Source: Planctomycetales bacterium (GTDB lineage Bacteria > 4484-113). From it: a stretch of DNA of 64,000 nucleotides. The stretch is taken from positions 125,612 through 189,611 of the forward strand of contig JAUWGS010000002.1 of assembly GCA_030606285.1 (NCBI GenBank), in the 5' to 3' direction. The first letter of the stretch is position 1. Every line of letters begins with the position of its first letter. The notes under the pieces were generated by a model, which saw only the letters and a program-made list of their open reading frames with translations, made no database searches and was not told the origin of the DNA. A program made the position numbers and the translations under genes. Of the stretch, positions 46,254 through 51,291 are shown piece after piece.

Positions 46254-47156
46254 ATGCGTATTTCATTTGCACTTGGGCGAAATCTGCTTCTCGGCCTGAT
46301 GGTCGCGGCAGTGGCATTGCTGCCCGTTCCGCTATCGGCAAGTGCAGCACCGTCGCCCGCGTTCCACGAAGAAGCCGACGATGCGGGTTTCGACTGGGCG
46401 CGCATCATCTCAGATTCCGCGCAGCTTCTGGCGGCGCCCAGCTACCGCAGCCGCTCGGTGCGTGAAACCGACCTGTTTGAGCTGTTGCTCGTCGTCGACC
46501 GCGTGAAGTCCTTCTACCTCGTGCGCGACGAGCAGACCCAGTCCTTCCTATTCGTGGACCAATTCGCCGTCGAGTTCGTGGATTACGAGCCGCCGAAGCG
46601 CCAGGGCGCGTACGTGCGCGACGAGAAGATGCGCCTGGGCACGACCCATCCCGACCTGCAGCTTTTCGGCAGCCAGTGGAGCAGTTCAACGCGGGGTTCC
46701 GGCAAGGAAGCGGCCTACGATGGCTATTGTGGCGGCAAGTGGTATCCCACAAACTACAGCGAAAACGCAAGTTACGAGTCAAAACTCGACGGCCACGAGC
46801 TTATCAGCGACGCCCAGGCGTACACCGGGGCTCGCTACGTCTATGGCGGCAATTCCACTAAGGGCATCGACTGCTCCGGCCTGACATCCGCTGCTGCGCG
46901 CAAGCAGGGAGTTAGCCTGCCGCGCCGTGCGTCGTTGCAGGCGCAGAAAGGCAAGATGGTCTCTCGCAGCGAGCTTAAGCCCGGCGACCTGGTATTCTTC
47001 CGCGACTACCGCGATCCCGGCTATCTCTCCCACGTGGGAATCTACCTAACCGGCGGGCGCTTCATCCACGCCAGCAGCAAGCTGCACAAAGTCGGTGTCT
47101 CCTCGCTTTCCGAGAAATACTACTCCGAGCACTTCGCCTTCGGCCGCCGGCTGTAG
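46254..47156 (+). CDS. secreted NlpC/P60 (C40) family cell-wall peptidase
   Basis: Signal peptide. C-terminal domain YVYGGNSTKGIDCSGLTSAA (catalytic Cys) ... HVGIYL (His). Confidence 0.7.
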   Translation: MRISFALGRNLLLGLMVAAVALLPVPLSASAAPSPAFHEEADDAGFDWARIISDSAQLLAAPSYRSRSVRETDLFELLLVVDRVKSFYLVRDEQTQSFLFVDQFAVEFVDYEPPKRQGAYVRDEKMRLGTTHPDLQLFGSQWSSSTRGSGKEAAYDGYCGGKWYPTNYSENASYESKLDGHELISDAQAYTGARYVYGGNSTKGIDCSGLTSAAARKQGVSLPRRASLQAQKGKMVSRSELKPGDLVFFRDYRDPGYLSHVGIYLTGGRFIHASSKLHKVGVSSLSEKYYSEHFAFGRRL

Positions 47157-47175
47157 GGTGGCAGGACAGGAGAAA

Positions 47176-47397
47176 TTGAGGAACTACCTGGCGATTTACG
47201 AACACACGGCGAACAACTGGGCGGCGTTCTCACCGGATGTGCCGGGATGCGTCGCCACCGGTGACACTCGTCAGGAAGCTGAAAAGGCGTTCTCTGAAGC
47301 GCTGGCATTCCATCTTGAAGGGCTGGCGGAAGAAGGCCTTCCTATCCCTGAGCCCCGCTCCGAAGCCGGTATGGTCGCAGTCAGCGTTCCTGAGTGA
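47176..47397 (+). CDS. HicB-family antitoxin-like protein (UPF0150 RNase-H-like fold only, no DNA-binding tail); TTG start after AGGAGA
   Basis: RNYLAIYEHTANNWAAFSPDVPGCVATGDTRQEAEKAFSEALAFHLEGL is the classic HicB N-domain signature. Confidence 0.6.
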   Translation: MRNYLAIYEHTANNWAAFSPDVPGCVATGDTRQEAEKAFSEALAFHLEGLAEEGLPIPEPRSEAGMVAVSVPE

Positions 47398-47426
47398 GGC
47401 GAGACTGTGATGTGACCCTTGGAGGA

Positions 47427-47792
47427 ATGGTGATTGTCGAACTAATCAGGAGACAAGTTAGTCCCGGAACGGTCGTGCCGAAACCTAAGGTTAAGAAGCC
47501 CTGCATAGTGAAGGGATGGGGAAGACGGCGCAACGAACCAGCACTTGTCTACTTCATCCCGAGCCGCAGTCATCCTGACAAACCGTACGAAAAGGGGATA
47601 ACCGTCTCGGAGTTCCGAAAGGCACATCGGCGGCTGATACGTGCCGGGGAGTTTACGAGAGCTTGGTTCAAGCGGCATATGCCCGAATGCGACGCCGAAG
47701 GCAGCTGCAATTTCACGACGATCGGCGGTATCTTCGTGGGACTTGGCATAGCGCGGTATGAGAGCAGAGGGAAGTACGTTAGGGTGGGCTAA
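47427..47792 (+). CDS. hypothetical 121-aa protein downstream of hicB-like gene; possible divergent HicA-like toxin
   Basis: GGAGGA RBS. Segment VYFIPSRSHPDKPYEKGITVSEFRKAHRRLIRAG loosely resembles the HicA core (vP.H...d...G.l..ilkq.G). Assignment is speculative. Confidence 0.3.
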   Translation: MVIVELIRRQVSPGTVVPKPKVKKPCIVKGWGRRRNEPALVYFIPSRSHPDKPYEKGITVSEFRKAHRRLIRAGEFTRAWFKRHMPECDAEGSCNFTTIGGIFVGLGIARYESRGKYVRVG

Positions 47793-47851
47793 TAAGGAGC
47801 CAAGTTCCGCTCTTGCATCCTGCGGGCAAATAGTCTACAATTGGCGGCGAT

Positions 47852-48439
47852 ATGTCGCCAACAGATCTACTGGCTGTCCTCCTACCCCGGGCGCGGCGAG
47901 CGATACTCGCCGAGCTTTTCGCGCGTCCGGACGAGCGGCTGCACCTGCGCGAGCTTGAACGGCGCACCGGTCTTAATGCCAAAGGACTGATGCGCGAGCT
48001 GCATTCGCTCACCGAGGCCGGCATACTCGCAGCGCAGCGCTCCGGTAATCGAGTATACTACCGGGCCAATCCCGATTGCCCGATTTACTCGGAGCTGCGC
48101 GCACTGGTTCTCAAGACCGCAGACCTCGCGGGAGTCTTGAAGCAGGCGCTTGAGCCGCTTGCCGACCGCATCGTACTCGCATACATCTACGGTAGTCACG
48201 CCACAGGCGAAGCCGGTCCAGAAAGCGACATTGATCTTATGCTGGTGGGTGAGCTTGCGCTTTCGGACATCGCATCGCCCATCGCGGAGGCCGAGCGGGC
48301 GCTTTCCCGCGAGGTTAGCCCGACGCTCTACGCGCCCGAAGAATACCGGCGCAAGGCCAGCGACGAAGACGGCTTTGTGGCGAAGGTGCATCGCGGCGCG
48401 AAGATTGTATTGCTGGGAGACGCAGATGAAGCTGTATAA
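47852..48439 (+). CDS. winged-HTH plus minimal nucleotidyltransferase (MNT) protein, paralog of 23912-24517
   Basis: GSHATGEAGPESDIDLMLVGE NTase motif. N-terminal wHTH. Start overlaps a palindrome GGCGAtatgTCGCC. Confidence 0.7.
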   Translation: MSPTDLLAVLLPRARRAILAELFARPDERLHLRELERRTGLNAKGLMRELHSLTEAGILAAQRSGNRVYYRANPDCPIYSELRALVLKTADLAGVLKQALEPLADRIVLAYIYGSHATGEAGPESDIDLMLVGELALSDIASPIAEAERALSREVSPTLYAPEEYRRKASDEDGFVAKVHRGAKIVLLGDADEAV

Positions 48440-48440
48440 G

Positions 48441-48902
48441 ATGGAGGAGCGCGGGTACCTCGCGCGGATCACGCCCAGCAGGGACGATCTGGCGCACCTG
48501 ATAACCGCGATCCAACGCCGGCTGATGGATGCGAAAAACGTAACCGTTACGCGGGAGAACCGGCTCCAGCAGGCGTACCAGGCCGTCTTGCAGGTCGCCA
48601 TCGCCGCGCTTCACGCGAAGGGCTACCGGCTGAAGAGCAAGCCCGCGCATCACGTTATGGCGATAGAGAGCCTGGAGCACACCATCGGCGTTGAGCGTGG
48701 GCTGCGCGACTACTACCAGTCGCTGCGCAAGCGTCGCCACGACGTAATCTACGACGCCATCATCTCGGTGTCGGAACAGGATCTGGAGGAGGCTATAGAG
48801 CGTGCTGAAGGCCTGTTCGCAGCATTCCGCGAATGGCTGGAGAAATATCAGCCGGATCTGGTGGACGCCTCCATCTGGCACCGCCCGGCGGATCCAGGCT
48901 AG
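48441..48902 (+). CDS. HEPN / NTase-substrate-binding-like protein, paralog of 24480-24926
   Basis: ATG directly after the MNT stop (alternative ATG at 48426). R-x4-H segment LRKRRHDVIYD. Confidence 0.55.
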   Translation: MEERGYLARITPSRDDLAHLITAIQRRLMDAKNVTVTRENRLQQAYQAVLQVAIAALHAKGYRLKSKPAHHVMAIESLEHTIGVERGLRDYYQSLRKRRHDVIYDAIISVSEQDLEEAIERAEGLFAAFREWLEKYQPDLVDASIWHRPADPG

Positions 48903-49107
48903 CACGACCGCGCGTTGTCTTATCCTCCTTCCCCGGCTACCGGCTATTTACCCGCCATAGTCACGCGCCTTGCGCGACGACGGCGGGCTGGTCACTGGCT
49001 ACTGGCTACACGATATTTTCTCCCCTCGCGTCAAACCCGCATCTAGCGCGGTATAATACATATGCGGGGCGCTAATAGACGCGCATTCCGCAGTGGAACA
49101 TTTACAT

Positions 49108-49473
49108 GGGGGTGACCTGGTTTCGACCGGAAGAGTTGAAGGCGAGGTCGCGGCAGGTGGCAGCCCACGACGTCCACCTAAATCACGCGTGGGAATGGTT
49201 CAAGCGCCAACTATCAGCTTGCTGCAGCTTAAGCTTTAGGCTGCACCTCGATCGGCGCGTCGCCCGGGGCGCGTCGGCGGGGCAAAGTTCCCGGGCTTTC
49301 CGCCGGAGCTGGCCGGCCCGGTGGGAGACATAGGCCTGCACCTCAGGGGCACGGGTGTTCGCGCGCCGTCCCTTTGGTTAAGAGCGCCTGACGCGAAAGA
49401 GCGTGGACTATTGCCGTAGACGCCGCACCGGAAGCTTCCTGGGACGGGGGTTCGACTCCCCCCACCTCCACCA
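49108..49473 (+). ncRNA. ssrA: tmRNA (ssrA), 366 nt, CCA encoded; predicted tag ending ...ANYQLAAA*
   Basis: 5' GGGGGUGACCUGGUUUCGAC start. Acceptor pairs GGGGGUG / CACCUCC with a G3:U70 wobble (AlaRS identity element). 3' GGACGGGGGUUCGACUCCCCCCACCUCCACCA T-arm and acceptor. In-frame tag gcc aac tat cag ctt gct gca gct taa. Confidence 0.8.
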
Positions 49474-49475
49474 GC

Positions 49476-49498
49476 CTTCGCCAAGGCTTCGGCTGGCA
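49476..49498 (+). repeat. left copy of 23-nt identical direct repeat ccttcgccaaggcttcggctggc, immediately 3' of the tmRNA CCA
   Basis: Identical to 50216-50238. Contains an imperfect hairpin with GCTTCGGC (UUCG-type loop). Confidence 0.7.
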
Positions 49499-49616
49499 AG
49501 CCCGTTCTCGTATAGATGTGCTGAGAGCGTCGAGGATTCATTCTCTTGCGAAGGCTGGTGCCCGACGTAGCTTTAGCGAAGTCGGGCCGGCGTCTCCTGC
49601 AAGATTGGGGGAACGT

Positions 49617-49859
49617 ATGCACTACGTATACTTGCTGAGAAGCACATCTGAACCCAAGCAAACTTACATCGGGATCACAACAGACCTGAAGAAGCGCTTG
49701 GCGAAACACAACAACGGCAGCGGTTACCACACGTCTAAGTACCGCCCGTGGGAGTTCGTTATGTACTGCGGCTTCCGATCCTCTGAGCGGGCTACCGCAT
49801 TTGAGGCTTATCTGAAGACTGGTTCGGGCAGGGCGTTCGCCCGCCGGCATTTCTGGTAG
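49617..49859 (+). CDS. small GIY-YIG nuclease-superfamily protein (YhbQ-like), copy 1
   Basis: HYVYLLRSTSEPKQTYIGITTDLKKRLAKHNNG (GIY...YIG). 80 aa. GGGGGAACG RBS. Confidence 0.7.
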   Translation: MHYVYLLRSTSEPKQTYIGITTDLKKRLAKHNNGSGYHTSKYRPWEFVMYCGFRSSERATAFEAYLKTGSGRAFARRHFW

Positions 49860-49892
49860 CCTTCTCGCTCGCAGCCCTGCGAAGAGAGAAGG
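49860..49892 (+). terminator. imperfect hairpin after GIY-YIG copy 1 (ccttctcgctcgcag-ccc-tgcgaagagagaagg), no T-tract
   Basis: 14-15-bp inverted repeat read by eye. Terminator function not established. Confidence 0.25.
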
Positions 49893-49955
49893 ATGGTGCC
49901 CTCCATAGCCTTGGCGACGGAGGGCTAAATGGCCCATTGAAACTGCGAGCTACAG

Positions 49956-50213
49956 ATGGCAGGCCATATGATGTACTACACTTACGTCCTTGAGAGTGAA
50001 GCAAAGCCCGGGGTGCGTTATATCGGACATACATCCGATCTCAAGCAACGCATTTCTAATCACAACAGCGGAAAAAGTGCTCACACCGCGAAACTGCGTC
50101 CCTGGAAACTCAAGCTCTATATTGCATTTGAAGATCTCGAACATGCCCGGCGTTTCGAGCGCTACTTGAAGAGTGGCTCCGGCCACGCGTTCGCCACTCG
50201 CCACTTCTGGTAG
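49956..50213 (+). CDS. small GIY-YIG nuclease-superfamily protein (YhbQ-like), copy 2 (true start possibly MMYYTYVL, a few codons in)
   Basis: YYTYVLESEAKPGVRYIGHTSDLKQRISNHNSG. About 50% identical to copy 1. Stop abuts the right direct repeat. Confidence 0.7.
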   Translation: MAGHMMYYTYVLESEAKPGVRYIGHTSDLKQRISNHNSGKSAHTAKLRPWKLKLYIAFEDLEHARRFERYLKSGSGHAFATRHFW

Positions 50214-50215
50214 CC

Positions 50216-50238
50216 CCTTCGCCAAGGCTTCGGCTGGC
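50216..50238 (+). repeat. right copy of the 23-nt direct repeat
   Basis: Identical to 49476-49498. Confidence 0.7.
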
Positions 50239-50292
50239 GAGTTCAGCTTCGCTCCTATCGGCGCTTCGCTCACAGTCGCTGCTCAGAACAGC

Positions 50293-51291
50293 CTACACCC
50301 GGCTTTCGTCTCCCTGAGCCTCTTCCTGTTCGACTGTCTTGGCGCGTTCCCGTGCGGCTTTCTTCACCGCGCCCACGCTGGCCGAAGGCTCGAAGATGAC
50401 GCTGTAGGGCGGCAGGTTTGAGGTGAGGAACACTCTTGCGCCGATGATCGAGTGGTGTCCCACGGTAATCCGCCCCAGCACGGTGGCTCCGGCGTAGATC
50501 ACCGTGTCGTGCTCAATGATGGGGTGGCGCGGGACGCATTTCTTCGGGCGCCCGGTTTCCTCGTCCATCTCGAACTTCTTGACCCCGAGTGTCACAGCCT
50601 GGTACAGCCGCACGCGGTCCCCGAGCACACAGGTCTGACCGATCACCACACCAGTGCCATGGTCGATGAAAACTTCCTCGCCGATCTGAGCACCCGGATG
50701 AATGTCGATGCCGGTCAGGCTGTGGGCTTGCTCGGTGATGATCCGTGGAATGATGGGAACCCCGAGATTGTAGAGTTCGTGGGCGATGCGGTAGCTGGTC
50801 AGTGCCATCATATTGGGGTAACAGAAGATCGGCGCTTCCGGGATCGTCACCGCGGGGTCCCACTCGTAGCTGGCCCGGGCGTCCGCCATCAGCTTGCGCT
50901 TGATCTCCGGCAAGGCTTCAAGGAACGAATCGATGACTTGTTCCGTTTGGTCAGGCGCTGCAAGCACGCGGATGCCCGGAAACTGGCGGCCTTCAATGTA
51001 ACGCAGAGCGTGGCGGGTCTCCTCTTGTAGCGTGTAAAGCGCCTGATCGAGGTTGGCCCCGATGTGGTAACCCTGGGTATCGGTACGGAATTCGCGGTAG
51101 CCGAAATAGCCGGGGAACATGACCCGGCGAAGTTCTTCCACGCATTCCAGAACTTTGTGCCTCGAAGGCAAAAACACGTTAGCGAAGCGCCGGTTATGCT
51201 CGTGCTCGTGCCAGGCCGGCGGCTTGCACAGCTCCTCGACTACCCAGTTCACTTTCTCGTTGCGGTTCTCGCCGCTGTTGGTGATGCCCAT
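50293..51291 (-). CDS. cysE: serine O-acetyltransferase (long form with N-terminal SATase domain)
   Basis: Hexapeptide-repeat region GIDIHPGAQIGEEVFIDHGTGVVIGQTCVLGDRVRLYQAVTLG plus N-terminal helical domain. 332 aa. Confidence 0.75.
   Translation of the reverse strand: MGITNSGENRNEKVNWVVEELCKPPAWHEHEHNRRFANVFLPSRHKVLECVEELRRVMFPGYFGYREFRTDTQGYHIGANLDQALYTLQEETRHALRYIEGRQFPGIRVLAAPDQTEQVIDSFLEALPEIKRKLMADARASYEWDPAVTIPEAPIFCYPNMMALTSYRIAHELYNLGVPIIPRIITEQAHSLTGIDIHPGAQIGEEVFIDHGTGVVIGQTCVLGDRVRLYQAVTLGVKKFEMDEETGRPKKCVPRHPIIEHDTVIYAGATVLGRITVGHHSIIGARVFLTSNLPPYSVIFEPSASVGAVKKAARERAKTVEQEEAQGDESRV

Follow-up and report, generated by a model that had tools for sequence, protein, structure and literature searches.

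Minimal GIY-YIG nuclease genes with paired hairpin leaders, found stacked behind tRNA and tmRNA genes, are probably selfish cassettes

In a 64,000-nt stretch of the genome of a Planctomycetales bacterium (contig JAUWGS010000002.1, positions 125,612 to 189,611; hereafter the window), the transfer-messenger RNA (tmRNA) gene ssrA is followed by two tandem units, each consisting of a hairpin-bearing leader and a gene for a minimal GIY-YIG nuclease. Comparison with related loci leads us to regard these units as probable selfish cassettes of nuclease plus hairpins, which can be stacked and which would be inserted at the 3' ends of tRNA and tmRNA genes by a mechanism that we infer from the arrangement of the loci. 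Across bacteria the cassette sits directly after the last base of the tRNA or tmRNA, in the same orientation. The 23-nt repeat found on either side of the two window genes is the cassette-encoded part of a left hairpin of ~28 nt, whose stem is completed by the ACCA of the tRNA or tmRNA itself. The nuclease gene encodes an 80-aa single-domain GIY-YIG protein of the Slx1/UPF0213 lineage. That minimal Slx1-like cassettes of this kind make up a distinct, hitherto unrecognised class of nuclease-driven mobile cassettes is a more tentative proposal. No description of their linkage to tRNA ends was found in the literature searched, including with a 16-mer of the repeat.

The complete ssrA gene with the tag ANYQLAAA, which the initial annotation had read from the DNA, was recovered at 49108..49473 (+) by ARAGORN and by Rfam (RF00023, 117 bits). 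The two tandem, diverged GIY-YIG genes that it placed behind ssrA (80-85 aa, about 50% identical) are likewise present: gene 1 at 49617..49859 (+; 80 aa; Pfam PF01541, E 2e-17) and gene 2 at 49956..50213 (+; PF01541, E 4e-15). Gene 2 is an 85-aa open reading frame (ORF) whose family-consistent start is at 49971; its product measures 81-85 aa depending on the start, has a single domain as in gene 1, and is 53% identical to the gene 1 product. The coordinates originally given were right to within 1-3 nt. Residues Y5, Y17, R27, H31 and E63 are invariant in a 27-sequence alignment that includes both window genes, and the active-site residues of gene 1 are intact. In the cargo (49474-50241) the two genes are the only intact ORFs with a family match, and neither its ORFs nor the family matches include a tyrosine or serine recombinase. 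An Rfam search of 49400-50400, in gathering and E-value modes, returned the tmRNA only, everything else scoring no better than E 0.9. The search for an intrinsic terminator of ssrA found no terminator-like site in 48850-50350, the hairpins there having no following T-run, and neither a sigma-70-like promoter nor a terminator was found between ssrA and the downstream gene cysE. Expression of the nuclease genes probably occurs by read-through from the tRNA or tmRNA promoter.

The 23-mer, CCTTCGCCAAGGCTTCGGCTGGC, occurs exactly at 49475-49497 and 50216-50238, in agreement with the direct repeat noted earlier after the CCA and after gene 2. These are its only matches in the 64 kb with 3 mismatches allowed, and none appeared in 100 shuffles. 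Copy 1 begins 2 nt past the tmRNA CCA and copy 2 begins 2 nt past the TAG of gene 2; the repeat reaches 26 nt with one mismatch. To describe the surrounding structures we use a covariance model, R1, built from 45 hairpin instances. Its seed was selected with a pattern requiring pairing and included the first three window hairpins, so that pair statistics and E-values of seed hairpins are circular. Copy 1 and the terminal ACCA of the tmRNA (49470-49473), which provides the outer stem, together form the unit-1 left hairpin at 49470..49497 (-; R1 44.3 bits, E 9e-9, in seed and thus not independent). On the minus strand this hairpin reads GCCAGCC-GAA-GCC-TT-GGC-GAA-GGCTGGT, and it recurs at the tRNA ends of other loci. 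Taken alone, the left hairpin gives no significant DNA fold from a single sequence (z about -1.3); its support is comparative. The unit-1 right hairpin, GCCCGAC-GTA-GCT-TT-AGC-GAA-GTCGGGC, lies at 49560..49587 (+; R1 43.7 bits, E 1e-8, in seed) and has a DNA fold of -9.4 kcal/mol (z -2.2); left and right hairpins are one motif in opposite orientations. Between them, GCGAAGGCTGGTG at 49548..49560 (+) is the perfect complement of CACCAGCCTTCGC at 49469-49481 (an inverted pair of 13 nt, 100% complementary). This pairing amounts to a long-range stem closing the unit-1 leader and is predicted in the RNA fold of 49440-49625 (z -3.2).

Unit 2 is built along similar lines. The left part of its leader, CCTTCTCGCTCGCAG...GAGAAGGATGGT, occupies 49860..49897 (+) and is matched in blastn by a related metagenomic contig, L097, described below; within it, GAAGGATGGTG is still complementary to CACCATCCTTC. 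The imperfect hairpin that the initial annotation had seen between the two genes is real: it is the unit-2 right hairpin, GCCCTCC-ATA-GCC-TT-GGC-GAC-GGAGGGC, at 49898..49925 (+; R1 39.7 bits, E 1e-7, in seed), and the DNA fold supports it independently of R1. A conserved module, GCGAGCTACAGATGGCAGGCCAT, follows at 49945..49967 (+) and recurs in loci L076, L081, L084 and L075. Its parts are equivalent to a left hairpin's 3' arm and a small hairpin, and its L097 version, GGATGG, is complementary to CCA+TCC. Beyond gene 2, copy 2 of the 23-mer (50216..50241, +; 26 nt with 1 mismatch) is a left-hairpin remnant that lacks the ACCAG part. R1 matches it at 50213-50238 (-) with 29.1 bits and E 7e-5, outside the training set.

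Elsewhere, too, each cassette comprises a ~90-140-nt leader and an 80-aa GIY-YIG gene, the units measuring ~350-390 nt. The leader starts at the first base after CCA or, where CCA is not encoded (L070), after the discriminator base. It consists of an inverted pair of the ~28-nt hairpin, in which a 7-bp stem is followed by a 3x3 G(A/T)A/GAA internal loop, then by a further stem of 3-5 bp and a small loop. Directly ahead of the gene the plus-strand motif is GCCCNCC-GAA-GCC-TT-GGC-GAA-GGNGGGC, which matches the left hairpin read on the minus strand. In left hairpins generally, the tRNA ACCA and three variable bases pair with N'N'N'TGG tens of bases downstream. An exact 6-mer complement of CCA+NNN occurs within 70 nt at 42 of 64 ends and involves nine different triplets, against 8.8 on average and at most 17 when the partners were permuted 1000 times; other tRNAs of the same loci have such a complement in 2 of 19 cases only. 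R1 gave 149 matches at E<=0.01 in 487 kb of loci, ~140 of them (as read from the table) within 800 nt upstream of a gene. In the window its five matches are all at the ssrA locus. Upstream of the gene, minus-type hairpins were found in 61/82 loci and plus-type hairpins in 59/82, with the minus-type left of the plus-type in 44 of the 45 loci having both. The hairpin thus has independent support from the position-defined CCA+NNN test, from the confinement of R1 matches to leaders and from the two window matches that were not in the seed. An asymmetry of G.T versus A.C pairs, bearing on which strand folds, gave a left-hairpin excess that comes almost wholly from the fixed discriminator position.

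Leader units also occur in tandem, with no genes between them. Locus L062 (2472-3000) has five units of ~102 nt before one gene, and L083 (2226-3000) has six units of ~118-128 nt, again before one gene. In L112, from ~6370, there are 3-4 tandem 30-nt units of GCTTCGGCTGGCAGGCCAGCCCCCGTCATC.

The link to tRNA and tmRNA genes was apparent from the first three genomic contexts opened, in which the gene lay 120-140 nt past the CCA of a tRNA-Ala, a tmRNA and a tRNA-Asn. A survey with one genome per species gave 80 loci; the counts below use 83 loci or 82 distinct loci. In 62/83 loci the start codon is preceded, at a distance under 400 nt and usually of 85-140 nt, by the end of a same-strand tRNA or tmRNA, and a same-strand tRNA or tmRNA gene lies within 800 nt upstream in 63/82. 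Of the 82 distinct loci, 70 have either a tRNA or a hairpin that abuts CCA, so that the position behind tRNA-like genes suggested by the initial annotation is the rule for the family. By eye, incomplete tRNA 3' ends can be seen in several of the remaining loci, where other insertions seem to have displaced them. Judging from tRNA gene density, an ordinary gene would be expected behind a tRNA or tmRNA in about 1% of cases or less. The partners are eleven tRNA species and tmRNA (~18 loci), and they differ within single groups: Gln and two different Leu tRNAs in Rhizomicrobium, Val and Ala in Victivallaceae. At least 17 lineages are named in the record titles of the loci, including Verrucomicrobiota, Nitrospirota, 'Deltaproteobacteria' (Geobacteraceae, Desulfobacterales), Dependentiae/TM6, Alpha- and Gammaproteobacteria, Lentisphaerota, Acidobacteriota, NC10, Armatimonadota, Planctomycetota, Zixibacteria, Binatia, Kiritimatiellota, Actinomycetes, Cloacimonadota, Saccharimonadales and Parcubacteria. 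The survey includes the cultured carriers Aquisalinus luteolus NH6-79, Reyranella soli NBRC 108950 and Geomonas paludis Red736, and a relative of the protein also occurs in Synoicihabitans lomoniglobus.

One locus shows an unusual layout. In L152 (140-800), a solo hairpin pair follows the internal ACCA of a 20-nt copy of a tRNA-Pro anticodon arm; downstream of it lie a complete tRNA-Pro whose CCA is not encoded, a leader of a second type and a GIY-YIG gene. This may indicate that (A)CCA within a stem is what insertion targets.

The 23-mer itself extends well beyond the window. By record titles, exact copies lie 2 nt past tRNA or tmRNA ends in Opitutaceae, Akkermansiaceae, Nitrospira/Nitrospiraceae, delta proteobacterium, Armatimonadota and Solibacteraceae loci, and one follows a CCA end in a Pontiellaceae locus that has no ARAGORN tRNA call. 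In GIY-YIG loci the gene-adjacent copy starts at tRNA end +2, and there are a few extra copies downstream (L016, L038, L045). Exact copies are also present in at least 120 stretches of JGI metagenome sequence. Among the matches listed, which hold 82 occurrences (58 with enough flank), 69/82 are preceded by CCA and one base (CCAG in 63 of these), 23/58 lie where an ARAGORN tRNA or tmRNA ends, and 18/58 have a GIY-YIG homolog within 900 nt. Copies without a gene are solo hairpins or solo hairpin pairs; solo hairpins confined to ~30 nt are frequent at tRNA ends. The 23-mer is therefore common without being scattered: it marks tRNA-type 3' ends.

Two kinds of departure from this pattern were seen in metagenomes. 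In L136, L168 and L169 the 23-mer has no preceding CCA and is read through by an opposite-strand ORF, which starts MKSNQTKNKAFTLIELLACQPKPWRRQ and has a prepilin-like N-terminus. In L161 and L175, two independent ORFs behind a 23-mer leader have TAG in place of the conserved Tyr3 codon (ATGCACTAGGTT..., TTGTACTAGGTC...); this could represent recurrent inactivation at one codon, or something else.

Several lines of comparison suggest that the units arrived at these sites by insertion. Gene 2 is 71% identical to the gene of the Desulfobacterales locus L076 and 65% identical to others, as against 53% to gene 1; similarly, gene 1 is 71% and 70% identical to two genes, P0001 and P0002, that lie behind a tmRNA-like end and a tRNA end, respectively, both with the unit-1-type 23-mer leader. 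Across 38 nt that take in the unit-2 right hairpin, the window and L076 differ by 1 nt. These identities place the window genes in two lineages, stacked here after independent acquisition, and leader and gene are inherited together. Tandem gene duplication was rejected as the origin of the pair, each gene being closer (71%) to genes of other organisms than to its neighbour (53%).

A further comparison is with L097, a close relative. It has the window's order of nucleotidyltransferase, HEPN, ssrA and cysE genes, the same tmRNA tag and a cysE 89% identical to that of the window. Directly after its tmRNA it reads CCA|TCCTTCGCTCGCAG...GAGAAGGATGGTG, followed by the unit-2 hairpin. In blastn, window positions 49865-49978 match L097 6302-6189 at 94%; 49482-49864 (unit 1) is missing from L097, and in place of 49979-50246 (most of gene 2 and the second 23-mer) L097 has 143 unrelated nt. 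That unit 2 once abutted the tmRNA had been predicted, before L097 was seen, from the complementarity of GAAGGATGGTG to CACCA(T)CCTTC, and L097 agrees. On this alignment the two loci differ by a site-specific insertion polymorphism, a single case. The initial annotation had proposed looking in relatives for an empty site behind ssrA; L097 has one with respect to unit 1, but it keeps the unit-2 leader before cysE. The unit-1 insertion is not itself flanked by the 23-mer, and the 23-mer as a target-site duplication of this insertion was rejected on that ground. Succession of units is also visible elsewhere: in L031 a gene is followed by a second leader and then by a truncated pseudogene, and in L024 the truncated gene comes first, ahead of a leader and an intact gene. 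Of the earlier suggestion that the units are self-mobile, arrival by insertion is favoured by the two lineages, the L097 boundary and the near-identical leaders found across lineages; the simplest account of these loci would be that incoming cassettes settle beside the tRNA and displace those already there.

A copy of the locus's own left-hairpin sequence, 10-38 nt in length, follows the stop codon in 8/62 loci (control mean 2.4, maximum 7). Direct left-hairpin repeats around the cargo are found in the window, L016, L021, L022, L031 and L091, and in less exact form in L050, L054 and L092. The downstream copies start 0 to ~14 nt into the hairpin, and their 3' half is always kept. In L016, 28 nt identical to the window sequence lie 15 nt past the stop. 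The copy at 50216 in the window is best read as a displaced resident hairpin or as the remnant of an older cassette; the 23-mer is neither a classic attachment (att) core nor a duplication of the target produced on insertion. L016 has a further peculiarity: its segment 2824-4664 contains a tRNA-Ala, the cassette, a degenerate second leader, and a pair of DUF433-like and PIN-like ORFs (labels by eye), and closes with 21 nt repeated from the tRNA-Ala 3' end, after which comes a left-hairpin copy. In this locus the cassette seems to have moved inside a larger island bounded by tRNA-end repeats.

The protein belongs to a large family, with hundreds of retrieved relatives 55-71% identical to the 80-aa protein; a profile search collected 3,659 representatives of 50%-identity clusters at E<=1e-10. 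It has the GIY and YIG motifs, the conserved Arg, His and Glu and the alpha/beta fold of the GIY-YIG superfamily, together with the motifs RPWE and YLKxGSGRAF, and it has no second domain. The AlphaFold model (predicted local distance difference test score 94) matches GIY-YIG structures. All significant solved fold matches are to the SLX1 lineage (At-HIGLE; Slx1-Slx4 complexes with branched DNA) or to the UPF0213 protein 1zg2. The best were 1zg2 (E 1e-9, profile search) and, in Foldseek, At-HIGLE and Slx1 (29-38% identity, query-normalised TM-score 0.7-0.77); UvrC shows up in these searches at E 2 only. Closest similarity is thus to the Slx1/UPF0213 lineage, and the protein lacks the C-terminal Asn of the UvrC/I-TevI lineage, a minimal domain without this residue being the mark of the former in the superfamily survey (PMC1564403). 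As far as motifs and nearest structures go, the protein would thus fall in the Slx1-like branch. The RING finger and Slx4 partner of orthodox Slx1 are absent from this 80-aa, GIY-YIG-only protein. NCBIfam and PHROGs have no specific family for the GIY-YIG proteins, and an exact look-up of both of them and of the cysE product found no identical record in the collection searched.

We envisage the following mechanism. New cassettes would enter at the boundary between tRNA and hairpin, pushing residents downstream to decay. In the window, unit 1 (49474-49859) would be the newest, unit 2 (49860-50213) older, and 50216-50241 the remnant of a still older resident hairpin. The target of the nuclease is, we infer, the hairpin, which would be recognised as single-stranded or extruded DNA and cut near the tRNA-hairpin junction, by analogy with Ssn and Slx1. 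Recognition as folded DNA is preferred because the motif lies on opposite strands in the two hairpins, which speaks against one RNA motif, and because Ssn and Slx1 set a precedent. Repair templated by a copy that has the cassette would then install it, the conserved tRNA or tmRNA 3' end and hairpin serving as left homology and a hairpin remnant, or a microhomology such as CCTTC, as right homology; as regards the left side, L221 shares 24/25 nt with the tmRNA end of the window. In effect, the cassette would home to a structure for whose completion almost any tRNA end suffices. If the hairpin copies on either side of a gene recombined, the gene would be lost and solo hairpins left; it is possible, if somewhat short of probable, that the solo hairpins seen at tRNA ends are such footprints or empty landing pads.

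A number of observations weigh against this proposal. Cleavage and mobility are deduced from comparison and analogy, and the protein, of 80 aa, does not have a DNA-binding domain apart from its nuclease domain. The covariation fits roles of the stems in RNA equally well. Two genomes do not polarise the window/L097 difference into gain or loss, and the next relatives have lost the tmRNA-cysE synteny: in L099, L100 and L223 (cysE 76-77% identical) no tmRNA lies beside cysE, which is followed by a DUF1858/DUF438/hemerythrin/PAS gene, so that the ssrA-cysE adjacency is specific to the close clade of the window. The junction of units 1 and 2 is off by one base for clean cut-and-paste (CCA|TCCTTC in L097, TAG|CCTTC in the window). 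About 85% of occupied loci have no downstream hairpin copy, and a right homology arm is therefore not general. About two thirds of the 23-mer copies, among the matches listed, have no nuclease gene within 900 nt, which means that the hairpin may spread or be selected apart from the gene. Finally, viral contigs yielded 2 protein homologs and no copy of a 22-mer within or overlapping the repeat, and plasmids yielded no homologs; with these searches nearly empty, phages and plasmids are not an evident transfer vehicle.

Other explanations can be envisaged. The initial annotation proposed that the repeat might be an att site, and the corresponding model has the 23-mer as the core of a recombination site at which a circular hairpin-plus-gene cassette integrates into a resident hairpin, and from which it can excise. 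The direct left-hairpin repeats around the cargo in the window and several other loci, the frequency of solo ~30-nt hairpins at tRNA ends, and the resemblance of arrays with the newest unit beside the tRNA to integron cassette arrays would all suit this model. Nevertheless, GIY-YIG enzymes are hydrolytic nucleases, the cargo is without a recombinase, and the only insertion that can be reconstructed (unit 1 versus L097) is not flanked by the repeat; moreover, downstream copies begin at variable positions in the hairpin and the second copy is missing in most loci. We consider the model unlikely. We find it equally unlikely that the protein is a domesticated, Ssn-like single-stranded DNA (ssDNA) nuclease which is not self-mobile and cuts hairpin-bearing DNA, such as transforming DNA or replication intermediates, with the tRNA-end hairpins as its sites and with tandem copies and polymorphisms produced by ordinary recombination at a recombination-prone locus. 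There is a precedent in SsnA of Neisseria meningitidis, which restricts transformation with NTS-flanked DNA and whose gene is flanked by its own hairpins (PMC11893778). That hairpins outnumber genes fits this idea, as does the retention of all invariant residues in both window genes, a sign of purifying selection. It would, however, leave unexplained the exact position of the gene at tRNA 3' ends (at least 70/82 loci), with different tRNAs within one genus, and the stacking of two divergent lineages at one site; the published Ssn motif, SRM, is also absent from this locus.

A role at the RNA level is less probable still, though it could coexist with DNA mobility. The leader would then be a structured 5' untranslated region co-transcribed with the tRNA or tmRNA, in which the CCA stem directs or protects tRNA 3' processing and the mRNA 5' end while the right hairpin controls translation. 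The RNA fold of 49440-49625 is in keeping with this in that ACCA and 8 nt form a 12-bp stem with GCGAAGGCUGGU, followed by the right hairpin (z -3.2). Sequences resembling UUCG/UACG loops are present in leaders, and the lack of a detectable promoter or terminator between ssrA and cysE points the same way. Masking of the ribosome-binding site by the right hairpin was rejected as a general function: a Shine-Dalgarno-like core lies in its 3' arm, at most 15 nt from the ATG, in 10/58 loci only. Furthermore, a sense transcript would carry GAA/GAA loops in one hairpin and UUC/UUC in the other, which is unexpected for a single RNA motif; solo hairpins exist without a downstream gene; and the known relative SsnA does not bind RNA (PMC11893778). 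Least probable by far is that the 23-mer is an ordinary intergenic repeat, similar to repetitive extragenic palindromic (REP) sequences, that lies beside the genes by chance, the outcome that the initial annotation had named as refuting its proposal. Its abundance in metagenomes and the high proportion of copies with no nearby GIY-YIG gene could be taken in this sense, but the 64 kb contain two copies only, both at the ssrA locus, the metagenomic copies listed cluster behind CCA and are near a GIY-YIG homolog in 18/58 cases, and gene-adjacent copies keep a fixed distance from the tRNA end.

Upstream of ssrA, the window has a small region rich in toxin-antitoxin-type genes (47095-48902, +), which includes a HicB-like ORF (47095-47397, +) and, directly ahead of ssrA, a nucleotidyltransferase and HEPN pair (47852-48439 and 48423-48902, +; PF18765/PF01909 and PF05168). 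Genes similar to these flank other occupied sites, in L016 (3866-4524) and L038 (from ~5128). A hairpin with the same loop type lies upstream of the tmRNA promoter at 48950..48988 (+) and is the weakest of the R1 matches in the window (18.7 bits, E 0.036). It reads ACCCGCC-ATA-...-GAC-GGCGGGC, with a 7-bp stem and a 3x3 loop (DNA fold -15.1 kcal/mol, z -3.4), and is kept in L097. This hairpin may be left over from another element or may serve the upstream HEPN gene as a terminator, and its membership in the element is uncertain.

Among known systems, the closest in concept is Ssn and the closest in fold is Slx1. The Ssn family (cd10448; Chenal et al., Nat Commun 2025, PMC11893778) consists of small GIY-YIG nucleases with a single domain. 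Each binds an oriented hairpin repeat (NTS/SRM), provided that it is ssDNA, and the cut falls a few nt upstream of the repeat. At least one such hairpin flanks the gene in 71% of cases, with hairpins on both sides in 42%, and the authors liken their system to REP/RAYT (PMC11893778). The proteins described here resemble Ssn in size (80 aa versus 94 aa in N. meningitidis, both under 150 aa) and in the nearly identical positions of the catalytic Tyr/Tyr/Glu (Y5/Y17/E63 versus Y6/Y17/E64 in SsnA). In both systems oriented imperfect hairpins of 20-50 nt flank the gene and outnumber genes, the downstream copy being present here in ~13-17% of loci. The SRM motif, HGTCWYN(0-2)YYVSBRHN(0-5)WNVSBRGN(0-2)RNCYNB, does not match anywhere in the window; across 476 kb of loci it has 5 matches, against 6 in shuffled sequence, and only 1 of the 5 lies within 600 nt of a gene. 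The strict tRNA/tmRNA 3' position, the CCA in the stem and the stacking set the present cassettes apart, the Ssn paper having no mention of tRNA (PMC11893778).

Slx1 cuts branched and stem-loop DNA. The Slx1/UPF0213 (YhbQ-like) proteins give the best sequence and fold matches and share the minimal domain without C-terminal Asn; unlike Slx1, the protein described here has no RING domain and no Slx4-type partner. We know of no link between Slx1/UPF0213 proteins and tRNA genes or specific hairpin repeats. A 2006 survey treated prokaryotic Slx1-like stand-alone domains mostly as vertically inherited repair proteins and described no tRNA link (PMC1564403). Another point of comparison is T4 SegB, a two-domain phage GIY-YIG homing nuclease in a tRNA gene cluster (PMC2330249): here too, a GIY-YIG gene lies beside tRNA genes, copying of the gene and its flanks by break and repair would be involved, and there is a presence/absence polymorphism. 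Occupied and unoccupied alleles at one conserved site, as expected of homing, are provided by the window and L097, in a single case that is not polarised. However, Seg proteins have ~200 aa or more with a separate DNA-binding domain and act on specific double-stranded sequences in phage genomes, whereas the 80-aa protein has no sequence-specific DNA-binding domain and is associated with a hairpin module, many tRNA partners and cellular chromosomes.

The inverted hairpin doublets associated with one small enzyme gene, and the likely recognition of folded ssDNA, recall the REP/REPIN-RAYT systems and the insertion sequences of the IS200/IS605 type; the latter insert 3' of a short motif in the host with which the end of the element pairs, a parallel to the CCA-TGG pairing seen here. 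Yet the enzyme is a GIY-YIG and not an HUH/Y1 protein, and its hairpins lie at tRNA ends instead of being dispersed between genes. No HUH transposase or dispersed doublets were found, the motif being confined to the ssrA locus within the 64 kb. To our knowledge, no covalent-intermediate chemistry is known for GIY-YIG enzymes. The 3' ends of tRNA and tmRNA genes are classic landing sites of integrase-borne islands, and the cassettes share with such islands and with integron arrays the hot spot, the stacked units and a structured site per cassette. They differ in having no integrase, in their ~350-390-nt units and in a repeat that begins after the CCA, 2 nt past it in the window, without overlapping the tRNA 3' end as in integrase-type islands. 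Small GIY-YIG nucleases with hairpin repeats were known; what is new, by the literature searched, is a well-supported niche at tRNA ends and the stacking of units.

If the cassette interpretation is true, there is a second, integrase-free route into tRNA and tmRNA 3' ends, taken by the smallest kind of nuclease gene. It would account for the occurrence of a near-identical non-coding 23-28-mer in unrelated bacteria, and the universal CCA end would explain the spread across phyla. The pairing of nuclease and hairpin known from Ssn would then reach a further branch of the superfamily and have a defined target in the genome, and an enzyme that cuts a structure-defined junction beside any CCA end could possibly serve as a programmable ssDNA or structure-specific tool. 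In genome annotation, many genes now entered as 'GIY-YIG nuclease family protein' could be labelled, together with the hairpins behind tRNAs, as one element.

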